IMG/VR virus record: IMGVR_UViG_3300042891_002161
Source: a virus
Lineage: Duplodnaviria > Heunggongvirae > Uroviricota > Caudoviricetes
Direction: 5' to 3' (one strand)
DNA: 64,000 nucleotides
A program made the position numbers and the translations under genes. Position 1 is the stretch's first letter. The number at the start of each line of letters is the position of its first letter. Positions 4,515 to 15,602 of the stretch are shown piece by piece. The notes below the pieces were generated by a model. It was not told where the DNA came from. It saw only the letters and a list, made by a program, of their open reading frames with translations, and searched no databases.

Positions 4515-4602
4515 GCGGAGAGTGAGGGATTCGAACCCTCGGTACCCTTTCAGGTACACACGCTTTCCAAGCGTGCTCCATAAACCACTCGGACAACTCT
4601 CC
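4515..4602 (-). tRNA. tRNA-Ser (anticodon GGA), type II
   Basis: Acceptor GGAGAGT/ACTCTCC. Anticodon arm CACGC-TTGGAAA-GCGTG. Long variable arm. T-arm GAGGGTTCGAATCCCTC. Discriminator G. CCA is not encoded. Confidence 0.8.
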
Positions 4603-4612
4603 AGTTATCTTT

Positions 4613-4699
4613 GCGGAGAGCAGAGTATTCGAAACTCACACATTTTATTGTGCCACTCGCTTAGCAGGCGGTGCTAGTACCCTGACTAGTTTACTCTCC
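4613..4699 (-). tRNA. type II tRNA, Ser-like (possible anticodon GCU; imperfect anticodon stem)
   Basis: Same GGAGAGT acceptor, GTTCGAATACTC T-arm and roughly 87-nt length. The candidate anticodon loop CTGCTAA has only a 3-bp stem in my fold, so it could be a pseudo-tRNA. Confidence 0.5.
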
Positions 4700-4704
4700 A
4701 TTAG

Positions 4705-4787
4705 CGGAAGAAGAGGGAATCGAACCCCCAAAGCCTTACGACCCAGCCGCTTTCAAGGCGGTGTCCTCGTCCATTCGGACTCCTTCC
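4705..4787 (-). tRNA. tRNA-Ser (anticodon UGA), type II
   Basis: Acceptor GGAAGGA/TTCTTCC. Anticodon loop CTTGAAA. T-arm GGGGGTTCGATTCCCTC. Discriminator G. Confidence 0.65.
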
Positions 4788-4792
4788 GGTTG

Positions 4793-4876
4793 CGGAGAGG
4801 TGAGGTATCGATCCCCATACCTTTCGGTACGACTAGTTTTCAAGACTAGCTTTAGCGCCAGCTAAATTACCTCTCC
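4793..4876 (-). tRNA. type II tRNA, Ser-like (anticodon loop CTTGAAA = UGA), with an unusual T-loop
   Basis: Acceptor GGAGAGG/CCTCTCC. Anticodon arm CTAGT-CTTGAAA-ACTAG. Discriminator G. The T-loop ATCGATA is non-canonical. The 5' half overlaps the HNH remnant frame. Confidence 0.55.
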
Positions 4877-5069
4877 TTTCATTAAAGTGATGTATTCTAT
4901 GACAATTTGAACATAAAACAATACACTTTTCTATTTCTTCTAATATCCTATCTTTGTTACAAGATTTTATAATATTTGATACTTCTGATTCTTTTTTACC
5001 AATATGATGAAAATCTAAAGCGGCTGGATGTGAAAATCCACATTCTTGGCATTTTAGAGAACTTTGAAA
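4833..5069 (-). pseudogene. HNH endonuclease domain remnant (no start codon; 3' end reads into a tRNA)
   Basis: The frame translates FQSSLKCQECGFSHPAALDFHHIGKKESEVSNIIKSCNKDRILEEIEKCIVLCSNCHRIHHFNERRGNLAGAK..., a full C-x2-C...HH...N...C-x2-C-H-x2-H HNH core. An in-frame TAA lies immediately upstream and there is no ATG. It lies between tRNA-Arg and the tRNA-Ser block. Confidence 0.55.
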
Positions 5070-5170: not shown

Positions 5171-5215
5171 AAAAACAAAAAACCCTTCAAACTTGAGTTC
5201 GAAGGGTTTCTTTAA
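5171..5215. terminator. rho-independent, bidirectional-type hairpin
   Basis: A-run, then the inverted repeat ACCCTTCaaacttgagttcGAAGGGT, then TTTCTTT. It lies downstream of the minus-strand gene at 5370-5972. Confidence 0.6.
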
Positions 5216-5263
5216 TATCTTTTTTACTTGACTATTATGAACACGATCGAACCTCACTCATTT

Positions 5264-5291
5264 TTGACGAGCGACTTGACGATTTTGACGA
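5264..5291. promoter_or_regulatory. three direct TTGACGA repeats in the 5' region of the minus-strand gene cluster
   Basis: TTGACGA at 5264-5270, 5276-5282 and 5285-5291, within about 100 nt downstream of the stop of gene 5370-5972. Confidence 0.25.
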
Positions 5292-5369
5292 TGTGTAAAT
5301 AATTGTTTTCATAATCTTATTGTATATATTACAAATGTAATCTTTGTTTTTGTTATTTCCTAATTTTTT

Positions 5370-5972
5370 TTATACTAAATCTTCAGCATCAGCTGGAAGA
5401 GTTATTCTAACAAGTTGTCTTTTAACATCTTCTTCTAATGGTAAAGACTCGTGAATGAATGTTGAATTACCCCAATATAAAGTATTACTCTTTAAGTTGA
5501 AGTTTTCCATTTTAGAAAGATCTAAATGTGAACAATCTCCACCTTGGTTTGGTTGACCTTCATAATCACCATTCCAACCTTTACAAGCTTCATAAGAAGA
5601 AACAATTAACATTCCACCTTTTTCAGAACAATATTGTTCTTCGTGTTTATCTCTTGGTAAAAATCTACCATCTTCTCCAGTTAACCAGCCGCTTCCGCCG
5701 CCACCCCATCCAAATAGATAGTTTCCATCAGTATGTGGTCCACCTCTTCTATGAGATTCACCTTTACTAACAATTTTTTCATCAATTGTTAAATATGCTT
5801 TACCTGTTTTCTTAGGTGAGCAATCAACAATCTCTTTAAGAACAGATTCCCATCTTTCATAACCTATTGGTAAAGTAGGATTCTCCATATCGAATTCGTG
5901 CATATAAACTCTATCACCTCTGTATTCTGGAAGAGATATCGGTTTAATCATTTTTGATTTACTTTTTAACAT
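5370..5972 (-). CDS. hypothetical protein, possible 2OG-Fe(II) oxygenase-like fold
   Basis: Candidate HxD (GGPHTDGNY) and a distal His (NSTFIHESLP) about 95 residues apart. The assignment is weak. Confidence 0.3.
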   Translation of the reverse strand: MLKSKSKMIKPISLPEYRGDRVYMHEFDMENPTLPIGYERWESVLKEIVDCSPKKTGKAYLTIDEKIVSKGESHRRGGPHTDGNYLFGWGGGGSGWLTGEDGRFLPRDKHEEQYCSEKGGMLIVSSYEACKGWNGDYEGQPNQGGDCSHLDLSKMENFNLKSNTLYWGNSTFIHESLPLEEDVKRQLVRITLPADAEDLV

Positions 5973-5988
5973 AATGTTATTTAATTTT

Positions 5989-6171
5989 TTAGTAGTTATC
6001 GTAGAAGTAATCTTTAAGATCTTTTTCTCCGTAACCTTTTTCTCTTAGGACTTTATACATTTCATAAGATGATTTGTTCTTTTTATTAGTATCAATAAAA
6101 TCTTCAATTTCATCTTTTTTAGAAACTTTTTCGCCTTTTACCTTTTCATTAAATTTTTGTAAATGTTTCAT
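5989..6171 (-). CDS. small Lys/Glu-rich hypothetical protein
   Basis: 60-aa ORF with a TAATATATAC-type motif upstream on the minus strand. Confidence 0.4.
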   Translation of the reverse strand: MKHLQKFNEKVKGEKVSKKDEIEDFIDTNKKNKSSYEMYKVLREKGYGEKDLKDYFYDNY

Positions 6172-6221
6172 TTTTTAATCTTTGATTTTATGTATATATT
6201 AAAATCAATATTTATATTTTG

Positions 6222-6350
6222 TGGGGATGGTTGGATTCGAACCAACGACCTTATAATTTCAAAATATACGAAGTAACTCTCTCAATCAACACTCTTTACG
6301 AGGTAAAATTTCAAAAGAGATAGTTTTCTCTACCACTGAGCTACATCCCC
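6222..6350 (-). tRNA. tRNA-like gene with a ~55-nt insertion (intron-like or disrupted; isotype unresolved)
   Basis: The 5' end GGGGATGTAGCTCAGTGGTAGAG and the 3' end AGGTCGTTGGTTCGAATCCAACCATCCCCA are canonical. The middle holds about 55 extra nt with a duplicated TTTTGAAATT segment (candidate anticodon loop: GAA or UGA). Confidence 0.45.
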
Positions 6351-6413
6351 AAATGAATTTATTACGTTACTTGAAAAGTGCCAAGTCGATAAAATTCTAA
6401 ACGGTCTCATAAC

Positions 6414-6558
6414 TAGGGAGAGAGGCAGGGCTCGAACCTGCGACCACGGATTTAAAAGATCGAAGTAACTCTTAACATCACTACTAATATTGATAATCAA
6501 TATCAGAGAATCCTTGTCAGAGTAATTGCGTGCTCTACCAACTGAGCTACTCTCTCCA
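6414..6558 (-). tRNA. tRNA-like gene with a ~70-nt structured insertion (His-like G-1/C73 architecture; isotype unresolved)
   Basis: The 5' end G-GAGAGAG-TA-GCTCAGTTGGTAGAGC and the 3' end GTGGTCGCAGGTTCGAGCCCTGC-CTCTCTC-C are canonical. The central insertion contains nested perfect hairpins (ATATTGAT/ATCAATAT; ACTCT/AGAGT). Confidence 0.45.
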
Positions 6559-6567
6559 TATTATTTG

Positions 6568-6650
6568 TGATTCCGGTGGGACTCGAACCCACGGTGGACT
6601 TTCATCGACAGATTAAGAGTCTGTTGCAATCGCCGCTATGCGACGGAATC
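6568..6650 (-). tRNA. atypical tRNA: Lys-type anticodon loop (CUU) on a type II-like scaffold
   Basis: Acceptor GATTCCG/CGGAATC. Anticodon arm ACAGA-CTCTTAA-TCTGT. D-loop contains AGCGGC. About 15 nt lie between the anticodon stem and the T-stem. T-arm GTGGGTTCGAGTCCCAC. Discriminator A. Confidence 0.5.
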
Positions 6651-6657
6651 ATTTTTG

Positions 6658-6740
6658 TGCGTCTGGTGGGACTCGAACCCACGGTTGAAATTAATCGACT
6701 GGTTAAAAGCCAGCTGCTATAGCCACTAAGCGACAGACGC
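6658..6740 (-). tRNA. atypical tRNA: anticodon UUU on a type II-like scaffold (paralogue of 6568 and 6750)
   Basis: Acceptor GCGTCTG/CAGACGC. Anticodon arm GCTGG-CTTTTAA-CCAGT. A 15-nt variable region. Identical T-arm GTGGGTTCGAGTCCCAC. Discriminator A. Confidence 0.5.
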
Positions 6741-6749
6741 AATACTTAG

Positions 6750-6834
6750 TGATCCTGGTGGGACTCGAACCCACGGTTGAGAATTAACTCTACTGGTTAA
6801 AAGCCAGTTGCTATAGCCGCTAAGCGACAGGATC
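6750..6834 (-). tRNA. atypical tRNA: anticodon UUU on a type II-like scaffold
   Basis: Acceptor GATCCTG/CAGGATC. Anticodon arm ACTGG-CTTTTAA-CCAGT. Variable region AGAGTTAATTCTCAACC forms a GAG/CTC hairpin. Same T-arm as 6568 and 6658. Confidence 0.5.
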
Positions 6835-6847
6835 ATTTGTATTTTAG

Positions 6848-6920
6848 TGATCCCGGTGGGGTTTGAACCCACAACCTTCCGATTAAAAGTCGGAAGCTCC
6901 ACCAATTGAGCTACGGAATC
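6848..6920 (-). tRNA. tRNA-Lys (anticodon UUU), canonical type I
   Basis: GATTCCG-TA-GCTCAATTGGTGGAGC-T-TCCGA-CTTTTAA-TCGGA-AGGTT-GTGGGTTCAAACCCCAC-CGGGATC-A. Confidence 0.85.
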
Positions 6921-6934
6921 ATTGTCTTTTTGAG

Positions 6935-6960
6935 GGCAACGATCCGTATGAATCGTTGCC
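6935..6960. other. 9-bp stem hairpin in a tRNA spacer (possible processing or termination signal)
   Basis: GGCAACGAT-ccgtatga-ATCGTTGCC. Confidence 0.3.
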
Positions 6961-7007
6961 TAGCGTTTATATTTCAATTTTGTTTTCATTTCTTTTAATT
7001 TATTTTA

Positions 7008-7079
7008 GCACGCCATTGAGGAATTGAACCCCACCGTCGAGGTTTTGGAGACCTGACCGACACCTTGTCTGTATGACGT
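7008..7079 (-). tRNA. tRNA-Trp (anticodon CCA)
   Basis: Acceptor ACGTCAT/ATGGCGT. Anticodon arm AGGT-CTCCAAA-ACCT. T-arm TGGGGTTCAATTCCTCA. Discriminator G. Confidence 0.65.
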
Positions 7080-7091
7080 ATTTTATTTTAG

Positions 7092-7173
7092 CACAGGTAA
7101 AGAGACTCGAACTCTTAGCCACTCTTACGAATTACCGGGTTGGAGCCGGCTGGTCACACCAATGAGTACCTGT
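7092..7173 (-). tRNA. atypical tRNA with candidate anticodon loop CTCCAAC (CCA) and an extended (~17-nt) variable region
   Basis: Acceptor ACAGGTA/TACCTGT is perfect. Anticodon arm GCCGG-CTCCAAC-CCGGT. T-arm AAGAGTTCGAGTCTCTT. The identity is uncertain. Confidence 0.4.
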
Positions 7174-7179
7174 ATGTTG

Positions 7180-7251
7180 TGGAGACTGACGGAATCGAAC
7201 CGACCTCTTCCGGGCTTCAACCGGACGCTAAACCAACTTAGCTAAGTCTCC
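7180..7251 (-). tRNA. tRNA-Phe (anticodon GAA)
   Basis: Acceptor GGAGACT/AGTCTCC. Anticodon arm TCCGG-TTGAAGC-CCGGA. T-loop TTCGATT. Discriminator A. Confidence 0.75.
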
Positions 7252-7254
7252 TTT

Positions 7255-7331
7255 TGGGTGAATGACGGGTTACGATCCCGCTACCTCTGGTACCACAAAC
7301 CAGCGCTCTACCGATTGAGCTACATTCACCA
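7255..7331 (-). tRNA. tRNA-His (anticodon GUG) with encoded G-1 and 3' CCA
   Basis: G-GTGAATG-TA-GCTCAATCGGTAGAGC-G-CTGGT-TTGTGGT-ACCAG-AGGTA-GCGGGATCGTAACCCGT-CATTCAC-C-CA. Confidence 0.85.
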
Positions 7332-7484
7332 TAATACCCCACTTCATCAGATTACCGGACTGACTGCCATATGGGAGTGGGGGTCTCCTGTTTATCTCAG
7401 GACTCCGTGGAACCTCCCGGTAACGATCCGGGCTCCCTGGATTTTCAGTCCAGTGCTTTCACCTGATTAGCTTAGGTTCCAATT
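7332..7484 (-). ncRNA. unassigned GC-rich (about 50% GC) structured spacer between the two His tRNAs
   Basis: Local GC is far above the 28-30% background. Hairpins include CCCGG-atcgtta-CCGGG and TCCTG-agataaa-CAGGA, and a CTGATGA element is present. No tRNA cloverleaf could be drawn. Confidence 0.3.
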
Positions 7485-7572
7485 TGGGTGTCGTACGGGA
7501 TTTGAACCCGTCCCCTAACTTTCACAGAGTTAGATGCTCGTCCGAAGACTCACCGCTGACAATAACGACACC
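7485..7572 (-). tRNA. second tRNA-His-like gene (GUG) with a ~12-nt hairpin insertion in the D region
   Basis: G-GTGTCGT acceptor pairing with ACGACAC, C73 and CA. Anticodon arm TAACT-CTGTGAA-AGTTA. T-arm ACGGGTTCAAATCCCGT. An extra GTC-TTCG-GAC tetraloop hairpin sits in the D region. Confidence 0.5.
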
Positions 7573-7579
7573 ATATAAA

Positions 7580-7618
7580 ACAAAAAAGTCCGAACTTTTT
7601 TGAAGTTCGGACTTTTGA
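7580..7618. terminator. bidirectional rho-independent terminator
   Basis: Perfect 12-bp inverted repeat AAGTCCGAACTT/AAGTTCGGACTT, flanked by an A-run and a T-run. Confidence 0.65.
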
Positions 7619-8627: not shown

Positions 8628-9167
8628 ATGGATTTAAATAATTATTTAAGAAAAGACTATGCTACCCCATCCACATATTATGGATATTCAAGTGACTCAA
8701 ATGCTGCTTCTACAGATTTTAATTGGTCTATTAGAAAGGTAACAACATCTGGTAATGTTGAAACTGTTACTTGGACTAATGGTGATCCTGGAAAACCATT
8801 TGCTAAATGGAATGATAGAGTTAACTCATTCGCAACACCAACTGGTTCATTAGGTCTTACATGTAGTAAAGGAACTCAAATAGGAAATAATGTACCATTA
8901 AATATCACTTGGAACCAATTATCTGGTGTTAATAGATATCAAGTAGTTGTTTCAAAAAATAGTATAGTTTACTCAGATTTGGGATCTCAAATTTATTATA
9001 ATCCAAACACAAATCAAATTACTAAAGAGATAGTAAATGATGGTATTTATATTTATAATTTTGCTGAGTCAACTAATGGTCTTTCACCAAGTAATATTTA
9101 CTCTATTACAGTAACAGCTGTTAATGTTGCTGGATCTTCAGCATCAACTGTTACTATTACTACTTAA
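8628..9167 (+). CDS. Ig/FN3-like beta-sandwich protein (possible capsid decoration or adhesin)
   Basis: C-terminal YSITVTAVNVAGSSASTVTITT, Thr/Ser-rich strands and a WTNGDPG motif. A TAATATATAC motif lies about 21 nt upstream. Confidence 0.45.
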   Translation: MDLNNYLRKDYATPSTYYGYSSDSNAASTDFNWSIRKVTTSGNVETVTWTNGDPGKPFAKWNDRVNSFATPTGSLGLTCSKGTQIGNNVPLNITWNQLSGVNRYQVVVSKNSIVYSDLGSQIYYNPNTNQITKEIVNDGIYIYNFAESTNGLSPSNIYSITVTAVNVAGSSASTVTITT

Positions 9168-9564
9168 TAACTTCTTTGATAGATTCAGAAACCATTTTCT
9201 TATCAGCCGGAAGAGTTGCAAATTCTTTCATAATAGCACCGATTTGAGTGATGCCAGAATTTACAAGTTCTGTTACTTTAGCAGTAACTTCTTCTTTAGA
9301 CATTTGTGTTGGAAGGTAAACTTCAACAATAGCCAATTCAAGTTTAGATTTTTCGTCATTGCTCAAAGTGATAGTTTCTTTTAAAGACTTAACAGTTTTT
9401 GTTAAAATCTTCATTACCTCAGCATCTGAAAGATTATCAGAACCAATATTCTTTTCTACGGTTTGAATTTCTCCTTTAACAACAGATAGTATGCTTTTTG
9501 CTACCATGTTTTTAGACTTAAATGCTGTCATAAAGTCTGCGTTGATTTTTTCTTTCAGTGTCAT
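9160..9564 (-). CDS. GatB/YqeY domain protein
   Basis: Full-length match of the pattern to bacterial YqeY (DFMTAFKSKN...LSVVKGEIQTVEKN...LSDAEV..IL.K.VKSLKET...EL.IVE.YLP.QMS.EEV...V.ELV...G....IG.IMK). Confidence 0.7.
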   Translation of the reverse strand: MTLKEKINADFMTAFKSKNMVAKSILSVVKGEIQTVEKNIGSDNLSDAEVMKILTKTVKSLKETITLSNDEKSKLELAIVEVYLPTQMSKEEVTAKVTELVNSGITQIGAIMKEFATLPADKKMVSESIKEVIK

Positions 9565-12065: not shown

Positions 12066-12500
12066 TTACATACTACGACGGATCTCACGATCCATATCTC
12101 TTTTTTTGATTGTTTCTCTTTTATCGTATAACTTTTTCCCTTTAACAACACCCAATTTAACTTTAACTCTGTTATGTGCTGTAAATATTTCTAACGGAAC
12201 CATAGTTGTTCCTTTATCTTGAAGTAATTTTTCAATTCTATCAATTTCTTTCCGATTAAGAAGTAATTTCTTATCTCTATTTTCATCATGTGGTTGAAAT
12301 GCGTGACTTTGTGAGTATCTAGCAACTTTCATGTTTTTAATCCAAATTTCACCTTTTTGTATGTAAGCAAAACAATCAGCAATAGTTACATTACCTTTTC
12401 TAATAGATTTAACCTCGCTACCCAATAGCATTACACCTGCGTCAAAGTCTTCCAACACAAAGTATTCATAATACGCTTTTCTATTAGTTGTTATTTTCAT
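12066..12500 (-). CDS. smpB: SsrA-binding protein SmpB
   Basis: Alignable along its length to bacterial SmpB (KAYYEYFVLEDFDAGVMLLGSEVKSIR.G...IADCFA...GE.W..N..V.....S.....D..R.KKLLLNRKEID..EK....KG.T.VPL.......VKV.L.V.KGKK.YDKRETIKKRD..REI.R). Confidence 0.85.
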   Translation of the reverse strand: MKITTNRKAYYEYFVLEDFDAGVMLLGSEVKSIRKGNVTIADCFAYIQKGEIWIKNMKVARYSQSHAFQPHDENRDKKLLLNRKEIDRIEKLLQDKGTTMVPLEIFTAHNRVKVKLGVVKGKKLYDKRETIKKRDMDREIRRSM

Positions 12501-13094: not shown

Positions 13095-13463
13095 TTAAAA
13101 GTCAGTGTCAGTGTTGTCAATAGAATCAACTGATTCAGATGGTGCTAATAAACCATCAATAATTTCAGTTAATTTTTTCTTAGTTACAGCCCCGTGTGTT
13201 GATTCAACAATTTGACCATCTTTATAAAAGAAGATTGTTGGAATATTTCTAACACCAAGTTCCATGACTTTATCTCTGTTTGCATCAGCATCACATTTAC
13301 CAACTTTAATTTGATCAACATAATCTGAAGAGATTTGATCCACAATAGGAGAAATCATTTTACAAGGACCACACCAAGGTGCCCAAATGTCAACAAGTAC
13401 TATTCCTTCTTTAACGAAATCATCATAGTTCTCACCGTTTAATTCTGTTATATATGCTACCAT
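13095..13463 (-). CDS. thioredoxin
   Basis: Active site WAPWCGPCK with a thioredoxin-fold context (VLVDIWA...C.M..P). Confidence 0.85.
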   Translation of the reverse strand: MVAYITELNGENYDDFVKEGIVLVDIWAPWCGPCKMISPIVDQISSDYVDQIKVGKCDADANRDKVMELGVRNIPTIFFYKDGQIVESTHGAVTKKKLTEIIDGLLAPSESVDSIDNTDTDF

Positions 13464-14831: not shown

Positions 14832-15602
14832 TTACATTAACATTTCATCAATAGCGTCAAACTCTTTCTTAGTTTCACGAACTAAGATAGCTCTTCCGTT
14901 ACGAATTTGTGATTTAACTGTTGATAGGTTTAGGTTAAGTTTATCAGAGATATCTTTATAAGACATTCTTTTTAACTCACGCATTTCAATTACATCACGA
15001 TAAGGATTCTTCAAGTTCTGAATATGTTTCTTCATAATGTCAGCTTTCTTAGCATGAATCTCATGCATGAAATTGTCACCTTCGTCTTCTTGAATGAAGT
15101 CTTTCATTGTTGTGCCTTCATCATCAAACTCAATATCTAATGACATTGTTTTCTTTTCGTTTTTAAGGTCTTGTAATGCTAGATTTTTTGCTATTGTAAA
15201 TAGCCAGGTAGAGAATTGAGATTTTTCTTTTTCATATTTCTCAATCTTCTCAAAAGCCGCCATGAATGAATCTGTTGAGATATCTTCTGCCTTTTGAGGG
15301 TCATTAGTAATTTTAGCTGTAAAATATACTAGTTTTGGGTAATACTTTGTGTACAATGAAGAGAAGTCTTTACCCGTTCTTTCTCTAAAGATTTTTTCTT
15401 GTTCACTGAATAAAATCGCTTTTGATTCCATAATTTGCCGTTTCTTTTTTTGTTGAGGAGTCATTAATTCATCCTCAATATTGCCTTCTTTTGCCGTTAA
15501 TGGTGATTGCTCACCCGAATAATTTATATCATATATATCAGCAAAAGTTGTGTCTGTTTCAAAGTTTTTTTCACTTTGATTTTCTAGTTTTATTTCTATC
15601 AT
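14832..15602 (-). CDS. sigma-70 family (ECF-like) RNA polymerase sigma factor
   Basis: Region 2-like FMAAFEKIEKYEKEKSQFSTWLFTIAKNLALQDLK. Region 4.2-like helix-turn-helix MRELKRMSYKDISDKLNLNLSTVKSQIRNGRAILV. Confidence 0.75.
   Translation of the reverse strand: MIEIKLENQSEKNFETDTTFADIYDINYSGEQSPLTAKEGNIEDELMTPQQKKKRQIMESKAILFSEQEKIFRERTGKDFSSLYTKYYPKLVYFTAKITNDPQKAEDISTDSFMAAFEKIEKYEKEKSQFSTWLFTIAKNLALQDLKNEKKTMSLDIEFDDEGTTMKDFIQEDEGDNFMHEIHAKKADIMKKHIQNLKNPYRDVIEMRELKRMSYKDISDKLNLNLSTVKSQIRNGRAILVRETKKEFDAIDEMLM

Follow-up and report, generated by a model that had tools for sequence, protein, structure and literature searches.

The window analysed here, a 64,000-nucleotide stretch of a tailed phage genome (Caudoviricetes; IMG/VR record IMGVR_UViG_3300042891_002161), carries on its minus strand a block of four transfer RNA (tRNA) genes with lysine anticodons, which we call K1 to K4. 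K1 (6567-6650, 84 nt; anticodon CUU at 6617-6615), K2 (6657-6740, 84 nt; anticodon UUU at 6707-6705) and K3 (6749-6834, 86 nt; anticodon UUU at 6801-6799) were each recognized by ARAGORN, by RNAfold and by the RF00005 model, with 56.3, 61.2 and 62.0 bits, respectively (gathering score 29 bits; E-values 2e-9 to 5e-11). The adjoining K4 (6847-6920, 74 nt; ARAGORN; RF00005, 71.4 bits) is a canonical type I tRNA-Lys(UUU) on the same strand and the first gene of this conserved four-gene block; its acceptor stem is near-identical to that of K1 (GATTCCG). The peculiarity of the locus resides in K1, K2 and K3, whose variable regions are long, a condition that textbooks limit, in bacteria, to the tRNAs for Leu, Ser, Tyr and Sec. 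The initial annotation had pointed to three tandem genes of this kind with the anticodons CUU/UUU/UUU, the same T arm and discriminator A, followed by a canonical type I tRNA-Lys(UUU); all of this is borne out by the three programs, on the minus strand, which it had left unstated. The G+C content of the window is low (approximately 29%). Over the aligned parts, its tRNA region is 73-78% identical at the DNA level to LR745206.1 (634,780 bp) and LR756502.1 (642,428 bp), which are among the four largest complete genomes of the huge phages (634-642 kb) of Al-Shayeb et al. (2020).

Except for the D arm and the variable region, K1-K3 have the architecture of ordinary elongator tRNAs. A 7-bp acceptor stem is combined with a 5-bp T stem (a 7/5 branch, as given by both ARAGORN and RNAalifold), G18G19 are present, and the T loop, TTCGAGT, fits the TTCRANT type, the whole T arm (GTGGGTTCGAGTCCCAC) being identical in the three genes. 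The anticodon arm consists of a 5-bp stem and a 7-nt loop, CUCUUAA or CUUUUAA, with U33 and A37. An intron or a misplaced anticodon was ruled out in all three genes, since every tool places the anticodon at position 34 within a loop of 7 nt. The discriminator is A73, the next base is C, and CCA is not encoded. The D stem, in contrast, has only 3 bp in the ARAGORN structures, with a mismatch at 13/22 (U13/U22), and the D loops of K1, K2 and K3 read AGCGGC, AGTGGC and AGCGGC, in that order. The variable regions measure 15, 15 and 17 nt. That of K1, CGAUGAAAGUCCACC (6607-6593), folds into a 3-bp stem (GAU/GUC) capped by a GAAA loop and followed by the 3' tail CACC, and that of K3, AGAGUUAAUUCUCAACC (6791-6775), contains a GAG/CUC stem. 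In K2 the region CGAUUAAUUUCAACC (6697-6683) forms a weak 2-bp stem (GA/UC) in this genome; the K2 orthologue in LR745206 (locus L001) has a GAG/CUC stem. The minimum-energy fold of each gene in RNAfold is a cloverleaf with an extra hairpin (-25.6, -27.3 and -29.4 kcal/mol; z = -1.9, -2.7 and -3.3 for K1, K2 and K3). Thus K1-K3 lack the 4-5-nt variable loop and the 4-bp D stem of a type I body, which is not a known identity determinant for lysyl-tRNA synthetase (LysRS).

The block is conserved among diverged phages. Both GenBank relatives, LR745206 and LR756502, contain the three extra-arm genes in the same order, and the full succession (in the direction of transcription canonical-UUU, long-UUU, long-UUU, long-CUU) recurs in LR745206 and in four IMG/VR contigs (L064, of 476 kb, L157, L203 and L208), while in L002 and L149 the three long genes are present but no canonical one was called. 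Orthologues of K1 were found in all of these loci (L001, L002, L064, L149, L157, L203 and L208). When 24 relatives were aligned, RNAalifold recovered the four helices of a standard tRNA and, with no prompting, added a fifth of 3 bp in the variable region. On this structure 94.9% of cells are paired, as against 71.6% after shuffling (none of 500 shuffles was as high), and pairing falls to 31-48% when the partner columns are slid by one to three positions. Compensatory changes, with both sides altered, occur at 19 of the 23 pairs, including all three pairs of the extra helix, which is 93% paired. Furthermore, among 160 distinct variable regions of extra-arm Lys tRNAs, an anchored hairpin of at least 3 bp is present in 88%, compared with 40% in shuffled regions (maximum 52% in 200 shuffles); 76 different stem sequences occur among them, the commonest loop is GAAA (50 cases) and the commonest 3' tail is CAUC or CACC. 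The covariation and the excess of hairpins over shuffled regions indicate that K1-K3 are not pseudogenes, an outcome that the initial annotation had named as one that ARAGORN and similar programs might reveal; ARAGORN calls all three as tRNA-Lys. We therefore regard it as very probable that K1-K3 are real, conserved and structurally selected tRNAs which combine lysine anticodons with a tyrosine-type extra arm.

Such genes are not an oddity of this genome. A wider set of loci was drawn with a pattern joining a Lys or Asn anticodon loop, a long spacer and the T arm of K1-K3. Many viral loci match it, and the neighbouring tRNAs with long variable regions include those for Met, Thr, Ile, Cys, Glu, Val, Trp, His, Gly, Pro and Asp. 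The Lys-specific form of the pattern matches at least 120 stretches in 2.9 million viral contigs and only 73 in 596 Gb of bacterial and archaeal genomes. ARAGORN found tRNAs in 66 of these 73 genome loci, many of which come from metagenome-assembled genomes (MAGs) of Acidobacteriaceae; 50 of them hold at least four tRNAs within 8 kb and 42 at least ten, and so these loci are tRNA arrays. In the Acidobacteriaceae/Terracidiphilus MAG arrays (10-31 tRNAs per 8 kb; L233, L239, L275 and L299 among loci L233-L305), the extra-arm tRNA-Lys(UUU) is highly conserved, with a GGGA/UCCC stem and a GAAA loop. Cultured phages carry such genes too. Rhodobacter phage RcXuper has two extra-arm tRNA-Lys genes of 88 nt (CUU and UUU) and Caulobacter phage CcrRogue has one of 87 nt and one of 90 nt (one CUU, one UUU); in the tRNA-cluster regions retrieved from these two genomes they are the only Lys tRNAs. 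Weaker matches to annotated tRNA-Lys genes were obtained in CcrColossus, CcrPW and two Brevundimonas phages. Matches in Streptomyces phages, on the other hand, proved to be ordinary 75-nt tRNA-Lys genes and were discarded. The cultured-phage genes have been in GenBank since 2012, annotated plainly as tRNA-Lys, and the phiCbK genome paper makes no remark on an extra-arm tRNA-Lys (PMC3556154).

The trait clusters in certain phages. In control loci picked through an ordinary tRNA-Leu, 8 of the 180 tRNAs for amino acids other than Leu, Ser and Tyr are long, and none of the 14 Lys tRNAs is; where loci were picked through a long tRNA, 36 of 265 bystander tRNAs are long. Among tRNAs outside the pattern selection, decoders of ANN codons (Lys, Asn, Thr, Met and Ile) are long in 68 of 533 cases and other isotypes in 38 of 785 (odds ratio 2.9, p = 5e-7), an enrichment that rests on loci chosen for an extra-arm Lys or Asn tRNA; Cys is also high (8/39). 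The converse change was observed as well: outside the pattern selection, 56 of 131 phage tRNA-Leu genes (loci L003-L232) have a short type I variable loop, for example the 77-nt tRNA-Leu(UAG) of L004. The extra arm has thus been both gained and lost in phages. A full-text literature search of incomplete coverage, which took in Mukai 2017 (without its supplement), Krahn 2020, Al-Shayeb 2020, Devoto 2019, Gill 2012 and the tRNAscan-SE 2.0 paper, returned no description of 7/5 extra-arm tRNA-Lys in phages. Extra-arm tRNAs of many isotypes are therefore widespread in phages and apparently undescribed, and the genes of the window, presented in the initial annotation as a singular case, belong to a broad phenomenon.

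Which amino acid would these tRNAs carry? LysRS identity resides in the anticodon triplet and A73, and transplantation of a UUU anticodon is sufficient for lysylation (Giege and Eriani 2023, PMC9976931). K1-K3 possess this full known set, namely a YUU anticodon (U35, U36 and U or C at 34) together with A73; in a first set of extra-arm Lys tRNAs, A73 was present in 23 of 28. The remainder of the molecule points in the same direction. We built a position-specific scoring classifier of isotypes over 48 fixed positions, in which the anticodon, the D arm and the variable region are masked. Lys is the top score for each gene: K1 scores 32.3 for Lys, 27.4 for Tyr, 22.6 for Leu and 11.1 for Ser; K2 scores 36.4, 33.5, 28.5 and 8.9; and K3 scores 30.9, 24.4, 19.9 and 8.0. 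The same agreement extends to extra-arm tRNAs of other isotypes in phages, where the discriminator tracks the anticodon (G in Asn, Trp and Asp, U in Cys and Gly, C in His) and the masked body is classified according to the anticodon in 4/4 His, 3/3 Trp, 6/8 Cys, 4/5 Gly and 12/17 Met cases. Demand for lysine is high in this genome: AAA makes up 6.24% of codons and AAG 1.61%, and lysine 7.8% of residues. The only CUU gene of the block is the extra-arm K1, and both the CUU and the UUU isoacceptors are conserved in diverged phages. In view of these observations, we favour the first of the two options offered by the initial annotation, that of unusual lysine isoacceptors, and estimate at roughly 60%, as judged from sequence, the probability that K1-K3 are charged with lysine and used in translation. 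Charging by the host LysRS is the most likely route, because the anticodon triplet and A73 that constitute its identity set are both present. As functional elongator tRNAs, the CUU gene would read AAG and the UUU genes AAA and AAG, and together with the adjacent canonical tRNA-Lys(UUU) they would serve an AAA-rich genome.

Several points weigh against this interpretation. LysRS is a class II enzyme that approaches its tRNA from the side of the variable loop, and an extra arm might hinder it. The leave-one-out accuracy of the classifier is 75%, Tyr is the runner-up for K1 and K2, and the T arm common to the wider set is fixed by the search pattern. A dedicated phage LysRS for K1-K3 was considered and rejected: a tblastn search of the window with E. 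coli LysS (a query that gives 95% matches to Salmonella lysS) found no LysRS gene, and none was found in LR745206 or LR756502, the two closest complete relatives, where only a non-discriminating aspartyl-tRNA synthetase (AspRS; NF003483, 474 bits) was detected. Charging would consequently depend on the host enzyme. The AspRS gene of LR745206.1 (locus L309, 336580-337944), which encodes a class IIb synthetase, lies approximately 5 kb from the tRNA-Lys block. In a further phage of 636 kb, LR756504.1 (locus L310), a shortened LysRS-like protein of 378 amino acids scores below the equivalog cutoff; the extra-arm trio was not detected in that genome. An alternative genetic code was also considered, and the window gives no sign of one, since 39 of 42 stop codons are TAA and long open reading frames (ORFs) cover 75% of it under code 11.

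Tyrosine was not named in the initial annotation, and tyrosyl-tRNA synthetase (TyrRS) is the only serious mischarging candidate, given the Tyr-like D arm and extra arm and the presence of A73 and U35. The D loop had been described as of "Ser/Tyr type", and it is the Tyr half of that description that holds, in overall architecture and in arm geometry. If an arm is written as the numbers of unpaired 5' bases, stem pairs, loop bases and unpaired 3' bases, measured on phage loci, the long Lys arms are (1,4,4,3) or (1,3,4,4), which is the geometry of phage tRNA-Tyr, whereas phage Ser arms are (1,5-7,4,1) and phage Leu arms (0,4-5,4,2). Bacterial tRNA-Tyr shares with K1-K3 the 3-bp D stem, the AGCGGC-type loop, G15:C48, an arm of 3-4 bp with some 3-4 unpaired 3' bases, A73, G1-C72 and U35; it differs in its GUA anticodon, in place of UUU or CUU, and K1-K3 differ from it in a masked body (acceptor, anticodon stem and T arm) that scores as Lys. 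As A73 and U35 are critical for TyrRS, with G1-C72 in bacteria and G34 (PMC9976931), K1-K3 combine A73, U35, G1-C72 and the Tyr-type arm, a core of tyrosine identity that also counts against lysine, with the absence of G34 and A36. The genes could accordingly be tyrosine scaffolds whose anticodon has shifted from GUA to UUU or CUU, charged by TyrRS alone or in competition with LysRS; tyrosine would then be placed at lysine codons, as a phage-directed recoding or a sabotage of host translation. A precedent for charging against the anticodon exists in the class II nev-tRNAs, which receive Leu (PMC3333845), and 25 of 182 extra-arm Lys tRNAs are classified as Tyr. Nevertheless, we consider both the tyrosine charging and the recoding that would follow from it unlikely. 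G34 and A36 are lost together and the anticodon holds all three lysine determinants, the transplant of which suffices for lysylation; the phage, with 7.8% lysine in its own genes, would mistranslate itself; both isoacceptors are maintained, as expected of real decoders; the extra-arm genes are the only phage Lys tRNAs in the retrieved regions of CcrRogue and RcXuper; and extra-arm tRNAs of other isotypes have discriminators, G, U and C, that are not those of Tyr. The initial annotation had instead suggested an anticodon-blind leucyl- or seryl-tRNA synthetase (LeuRS or SerRS), with AAA and AAG misread as Leu or Ser, and this appears most improbable. The long variable region and class II D arm would suit either enzyme; A73 is the main determinant of leucine identity, and the LeuRS of E. 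coli, which relies on A73, A15:U48, G18G19 and A20a, ignores both anticodon and arm (PMC9976931); moreover, 16 of the 182 extra-arm Lys tRNAs are classified as Leu. However, by these E. coli rules K1-K3 retain A73 and G18G19 and have G15:C48 in place of the essential A15:U48, and G or U rather than A at 20a, with an arm geometry unlike that of Leu and masked-body scores of 20-28 against 31-36 for Lys. SerRS, by rules likewise taken from E. coli, reads the arm and G73 and ignores the anticodon (PMC9976931); K1-K3 have A73, arm stems of 2-3 bp and 4-5 unpaired 3' bases, as opposed to the 6-bp stem and single unpaired 3' base of the phage's own tRNA-Ser (4515-4602), and their Ser scores are 8-11.

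Explanations in which the arm or the whole gene has no part in decoding were also considered. K1-K3 might be decoys or sponges for tRNA-Lys nucleases or tRNA-binding defence proteins, or regulatory RNAs, a proposal in keeping with three extra copies beside a canonical tRNA-Lys(UUU), with the frequency at which Lys tRNAs are targeted by defence systems, and with the non-translational roles proposed for some irregular tRNAs in Mukai 2017 (PMC5389517). We find it quite unlikely, as every feature used in translation is conserved (7/5 branch, G18G19, T loop, 7-nt anticodon loop, U33, A37 and A73), the sole CUU isoacceptor of the block is an extra-arm gene, and the retrieved tRNA-cluster regions of the cultured phages contain no canonical phage Lys tRNA. 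It is less plausible still that the arm is a neutral or selfish insertion, for example a scar that makes the gene resistant to homing endonucleases directed at canonical tRNA genes, or that the genes are decaying duplicates. The near loss of the K2 stem in this genome speaks for neutrality, as it does against a maintained arm; homing-endonuclease-like ORFs are enriched at extra-arm loci, an HNH remnant (4836-5054) lies in this very cluster, and the lability of the arm is illustrated by the phage tRNA-Leu genes without it (56/131). Against it stand the compensatory changes in the arm among 24 relatives and the 76 stem variants, the constant geometry with recurrent GAAA loops and a D arm remodelled in concert, and the conservation of the block although the tRNA clusters are only about 73-78% identical in DNA; the enrichment in endonucleases is itself confounded by lineage and genome size.

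The simplest reading is that an arm has been added to tRNAs that stay cognate. The body of a lysine tRNA would have been converted to the tyrosine type of class II, with a 3-bp D stem, G15:C48 and a 3-4-bp arm, often capped by GAAA and followed by 3-5 unpaired bases. A tyrosine-type arm may be the safe one to add, because TyrRS, the sole synthetase using that geometry, also reads the anticodon; a Ser-like or Leu-like geometry would invite mischarging by enzymes blind to the anticodon. Regarding its function, the arm would alter the surface between the anticodon stem, the D arm and the elbow, and phage tRNA could in this way be told apart from host tRNA-Lys. Phage tRNAs so distinguished might escape defence nucleases that act on tRNA-Lys, such as those like PrrC or PARIS/AriB, or be spared when the phage itself attacks host tRNAs. 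PrrC cleaves tRNA-Lys, and phage tRNA-Lys genes rescue infection (PMC11555353). The AriB nuclease of PARIS cleaves the E. coli tRNAs for Lys(UUU), Thr(UGU) and Asn(GUU) at C40|A41; it reads the anticodon stem on its 3' strand, an AlphaFold 3 model and a U16C mutant indicate that U16-U17 in the D loop are read too, and it is neutralized by the T5 versions of tRNA-Lys, tRNA-Thr and tRNA-Asn (PMC12409363). In K1-K3 the arm leaves the body between the D arm and the anticodon stem's 3' strand, a surface adjoining the region read by AriB, and the isotypes most often armed in phages overlap the targets of PrrC and AriB. Even so, we put forward evasion of tRNA-targeting nucleases, or self-marking, only as a speculative role for the arm. 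Alternatives are a mark by which the phage's own tRNAs are left out of a phage-encoded attack on host tRNAs, a stabilizing element, a decoy, or a tolerated insertion linked to homing endonucleases. Equally tentative is the more general proposal that many phage lineages graft a Tyr-type arm on cognate tRNAs (Lys, Asn, Met, Ile, Thr, Cys, Trp, His, Gly, Pro and others) as a self-mark or a steric shield against tRNA-targeting immunity or against their own attack on host tRNAs, which would make these tRNAs an undescribed class. No partner protein emerged when 2,623 ORFs of 232 phage loci were clustered all against all; the YqeY, SmpB and tryptophanyl-tRNA synthetase families are too sparse to assess, and homing-endonuclease-like ORFs are the only families specific to extra-arm loci. 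These comprise GIY-YIG-, HNH- and endonuclease I-like families (representatives in L005 and L003); of the loci that hold them, 36/39, 32/38 and 14/14, respectively, have extra-arm tRNAs (Fisher p = 3e-6, 9e-4 and 1e-3); their Pfam matches are weak and their enrichment is probably confounded by lineage.

Known irregular tRNAs provide only partial parallels. The nev-tRNAs are class II molecules that descend from tRNA-Leu and receive Leu although their anticodons are those of Gly or Ile (Hamashima 2012, PMC3333845). They resemble K1-K3 in being class II with a 7/5 branch and anticodons of amino acids other than Leu, Ser and Tyr, and they are expressed and usable by the ribosome. In contrast, nev-tRNAs are restricted to nematodes and to rare codons, whereas K1-K3 address the commonest codon of their genome and have counterparts in many phage lineages; the arm of K1-K3 is Tyr-like rather than Leu-like, their body is Lys-like with Lys identity elements, and a Leu ancestry is unsupported. 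Allo-tRNAs are defined by a branch of 8/4 or 9/3 and by a D arm like that of tRNA-Sec; most have G73 or U73, the marks of serine or alanine identity (Mukai 2017, PMC5389517). Together with (8/4) tRNA-Ser and tRNA-His as given there, they share with K1-K3 long extra arms, diverse anticodons (including one for Lys) and compatibility with bacterial translation, and, like extra-arm tRNA-Lys, allo-tRNAs are reported from metagenomes, Acidobacteria and phage tRNA clusters; they differ from the 7/5 branch, Tyr-like D arm and A73 of K1-K3. An assignment of K1-K3 to the allo-tRNAs was rejected, since ARAGORN and RNAalifold give a 7/5 branch and, at the gathering threshold, the genes match RF00005 only and not RF01852. 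Allo-tRNAs were described in the Acidobacteriaceae/Terracidiphilus taxa as well. Finally, the phage escape tRNAs (those of T5 for Lys, Thr and Asn against AriB, PMC12409363; Lys against PrrC, PMC11555353; anticodon-loop variants, PMC10264068) are, similarly to K1-K3, extra phage copies of tRNA-Lys, -Asn or -Thr that differ from those of the host. They are, however, ordinary tRNAs of type I, altered by point changes to the anticodon stem-loop or the D loop, and an added arm is unreported as an escape device.

The known exceptions to the usual distribution of long variable arms are the nev-tRNAs and allo-tRNAs, both of them oddities of mischarging. In the present case the tRNAs that bear the arm have otherwise cognate identity elements, compensatory changes have preserved it, and many viral contigs, as well as cultured phages, contain it. 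If K1-K3 are indeed charged with lysine, a class II body on a class I identity must be acceptable to LysRS, EF-Tu and the ribosome, which would be useful in the design of orthogonal tRNAs. Were the arm to shield them from defence nucleases, it would give phages a new, structural means in their tRNA arms race with bacteria, and charging with tyrosine would make of K1-K3 a viral device of missense recoding. Given that CcrRogue and RcXuper carry such genes, the question can be addressed in cultured phages now.

K1-K4 belong to a longer tRNA array, which is flanked by strong terminator-like hairpins (7616-7584 and 5212-5177 in a terminator scan) and probably forms one transcription unit (5177-7616, minus strand). 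A scan for sigma-70-like promoters found none that stands out in the array (8 found, 10 expected). In the order of transcription it comprises a His-like tRNA, tRNAs for Phe, His and Phe, two for Trp, K4 to K1, two tRNAs with inserts and two small ORFs. One of the two Trp genes (7090-7174, minus strand), with a CCA anticodon, discriminator G and an extra hairpin in its variable region, is a probable further extra-arm member: RNAfold gives a cloverleaf with the extra hairpin, its RF01852 match is weak (27.6 bits), and extra-arm tRNA-Trp genes with G73 also occur in L036 and L079. The second tRNA-Trp(CCA)-like gene (7006-7078, minus strand) is of normal size; ARAGORN missed both. The two insert-bearing genes (6222-6350 and 6420-6555, both minus strand) contain inserts of approximately 55 nt near the anticodon loop (UUUUGAA and CUUUUAA) that end in a common 12-mer, AGAGTTACTTCG; "enigmatic" tRNA introns have been noted in Lak megaphages (PMC6784885). 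The His-like gene at the head of the array (7485-7572, minus strand; anticodon GUG, discriminator C) has an 8-bp acceptor stem that includes G-1, an extra GC-rich hairpin in the D-arm region, an anticodon stem of 6-7 bp and a weak RF01852 match.

Separate from K1-K3 are a tRNA-Ser(GCU)-like gene (4606-4702, minus strand) and a tRNA-Ser(UGA)-like gene (4704-4789, minus strand), with long acceptor and short T stems in an 8/4-like arrangement, which resemble the phage (8/4) tRNA-Ser of Mukai 2017 (PMC5389517). A weak match to the tRNA-Sec model covers 4706-4787 of the latter, and its orthologues in L001 (3446-3530) and L002 (4017-4103) score above the gathering threshold. Between these Ser-like tRNAs and a tRNA-Arg lies the HNH-endonuclease remnant mentioned above (minus strand; 73 codons, without a start codon; weak Pfam HNH match, 17.6 bits). 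Inside the tRNA unit, a 200-amino-acid ORF (5370-5972, minus strand) with a GGPHTDG motif and a glycine-rich run has no match in Pfam or NCBIfam. Just past the array are genes for a YqeY-domain protein (9160-9564), SmpB (12066-12500; 181 bits), thioredoxin (13095-13463) and a sigma-70 factor (14832-15602), all on the minus strand; despite the presence of SmpB, ARAGORN found no transfer-messenger RNA gene in the 64-kb window. On the plus strand, 873-2531 encodes a 552-amino-acid protein with collagen triple-helix repeats (90 bits).

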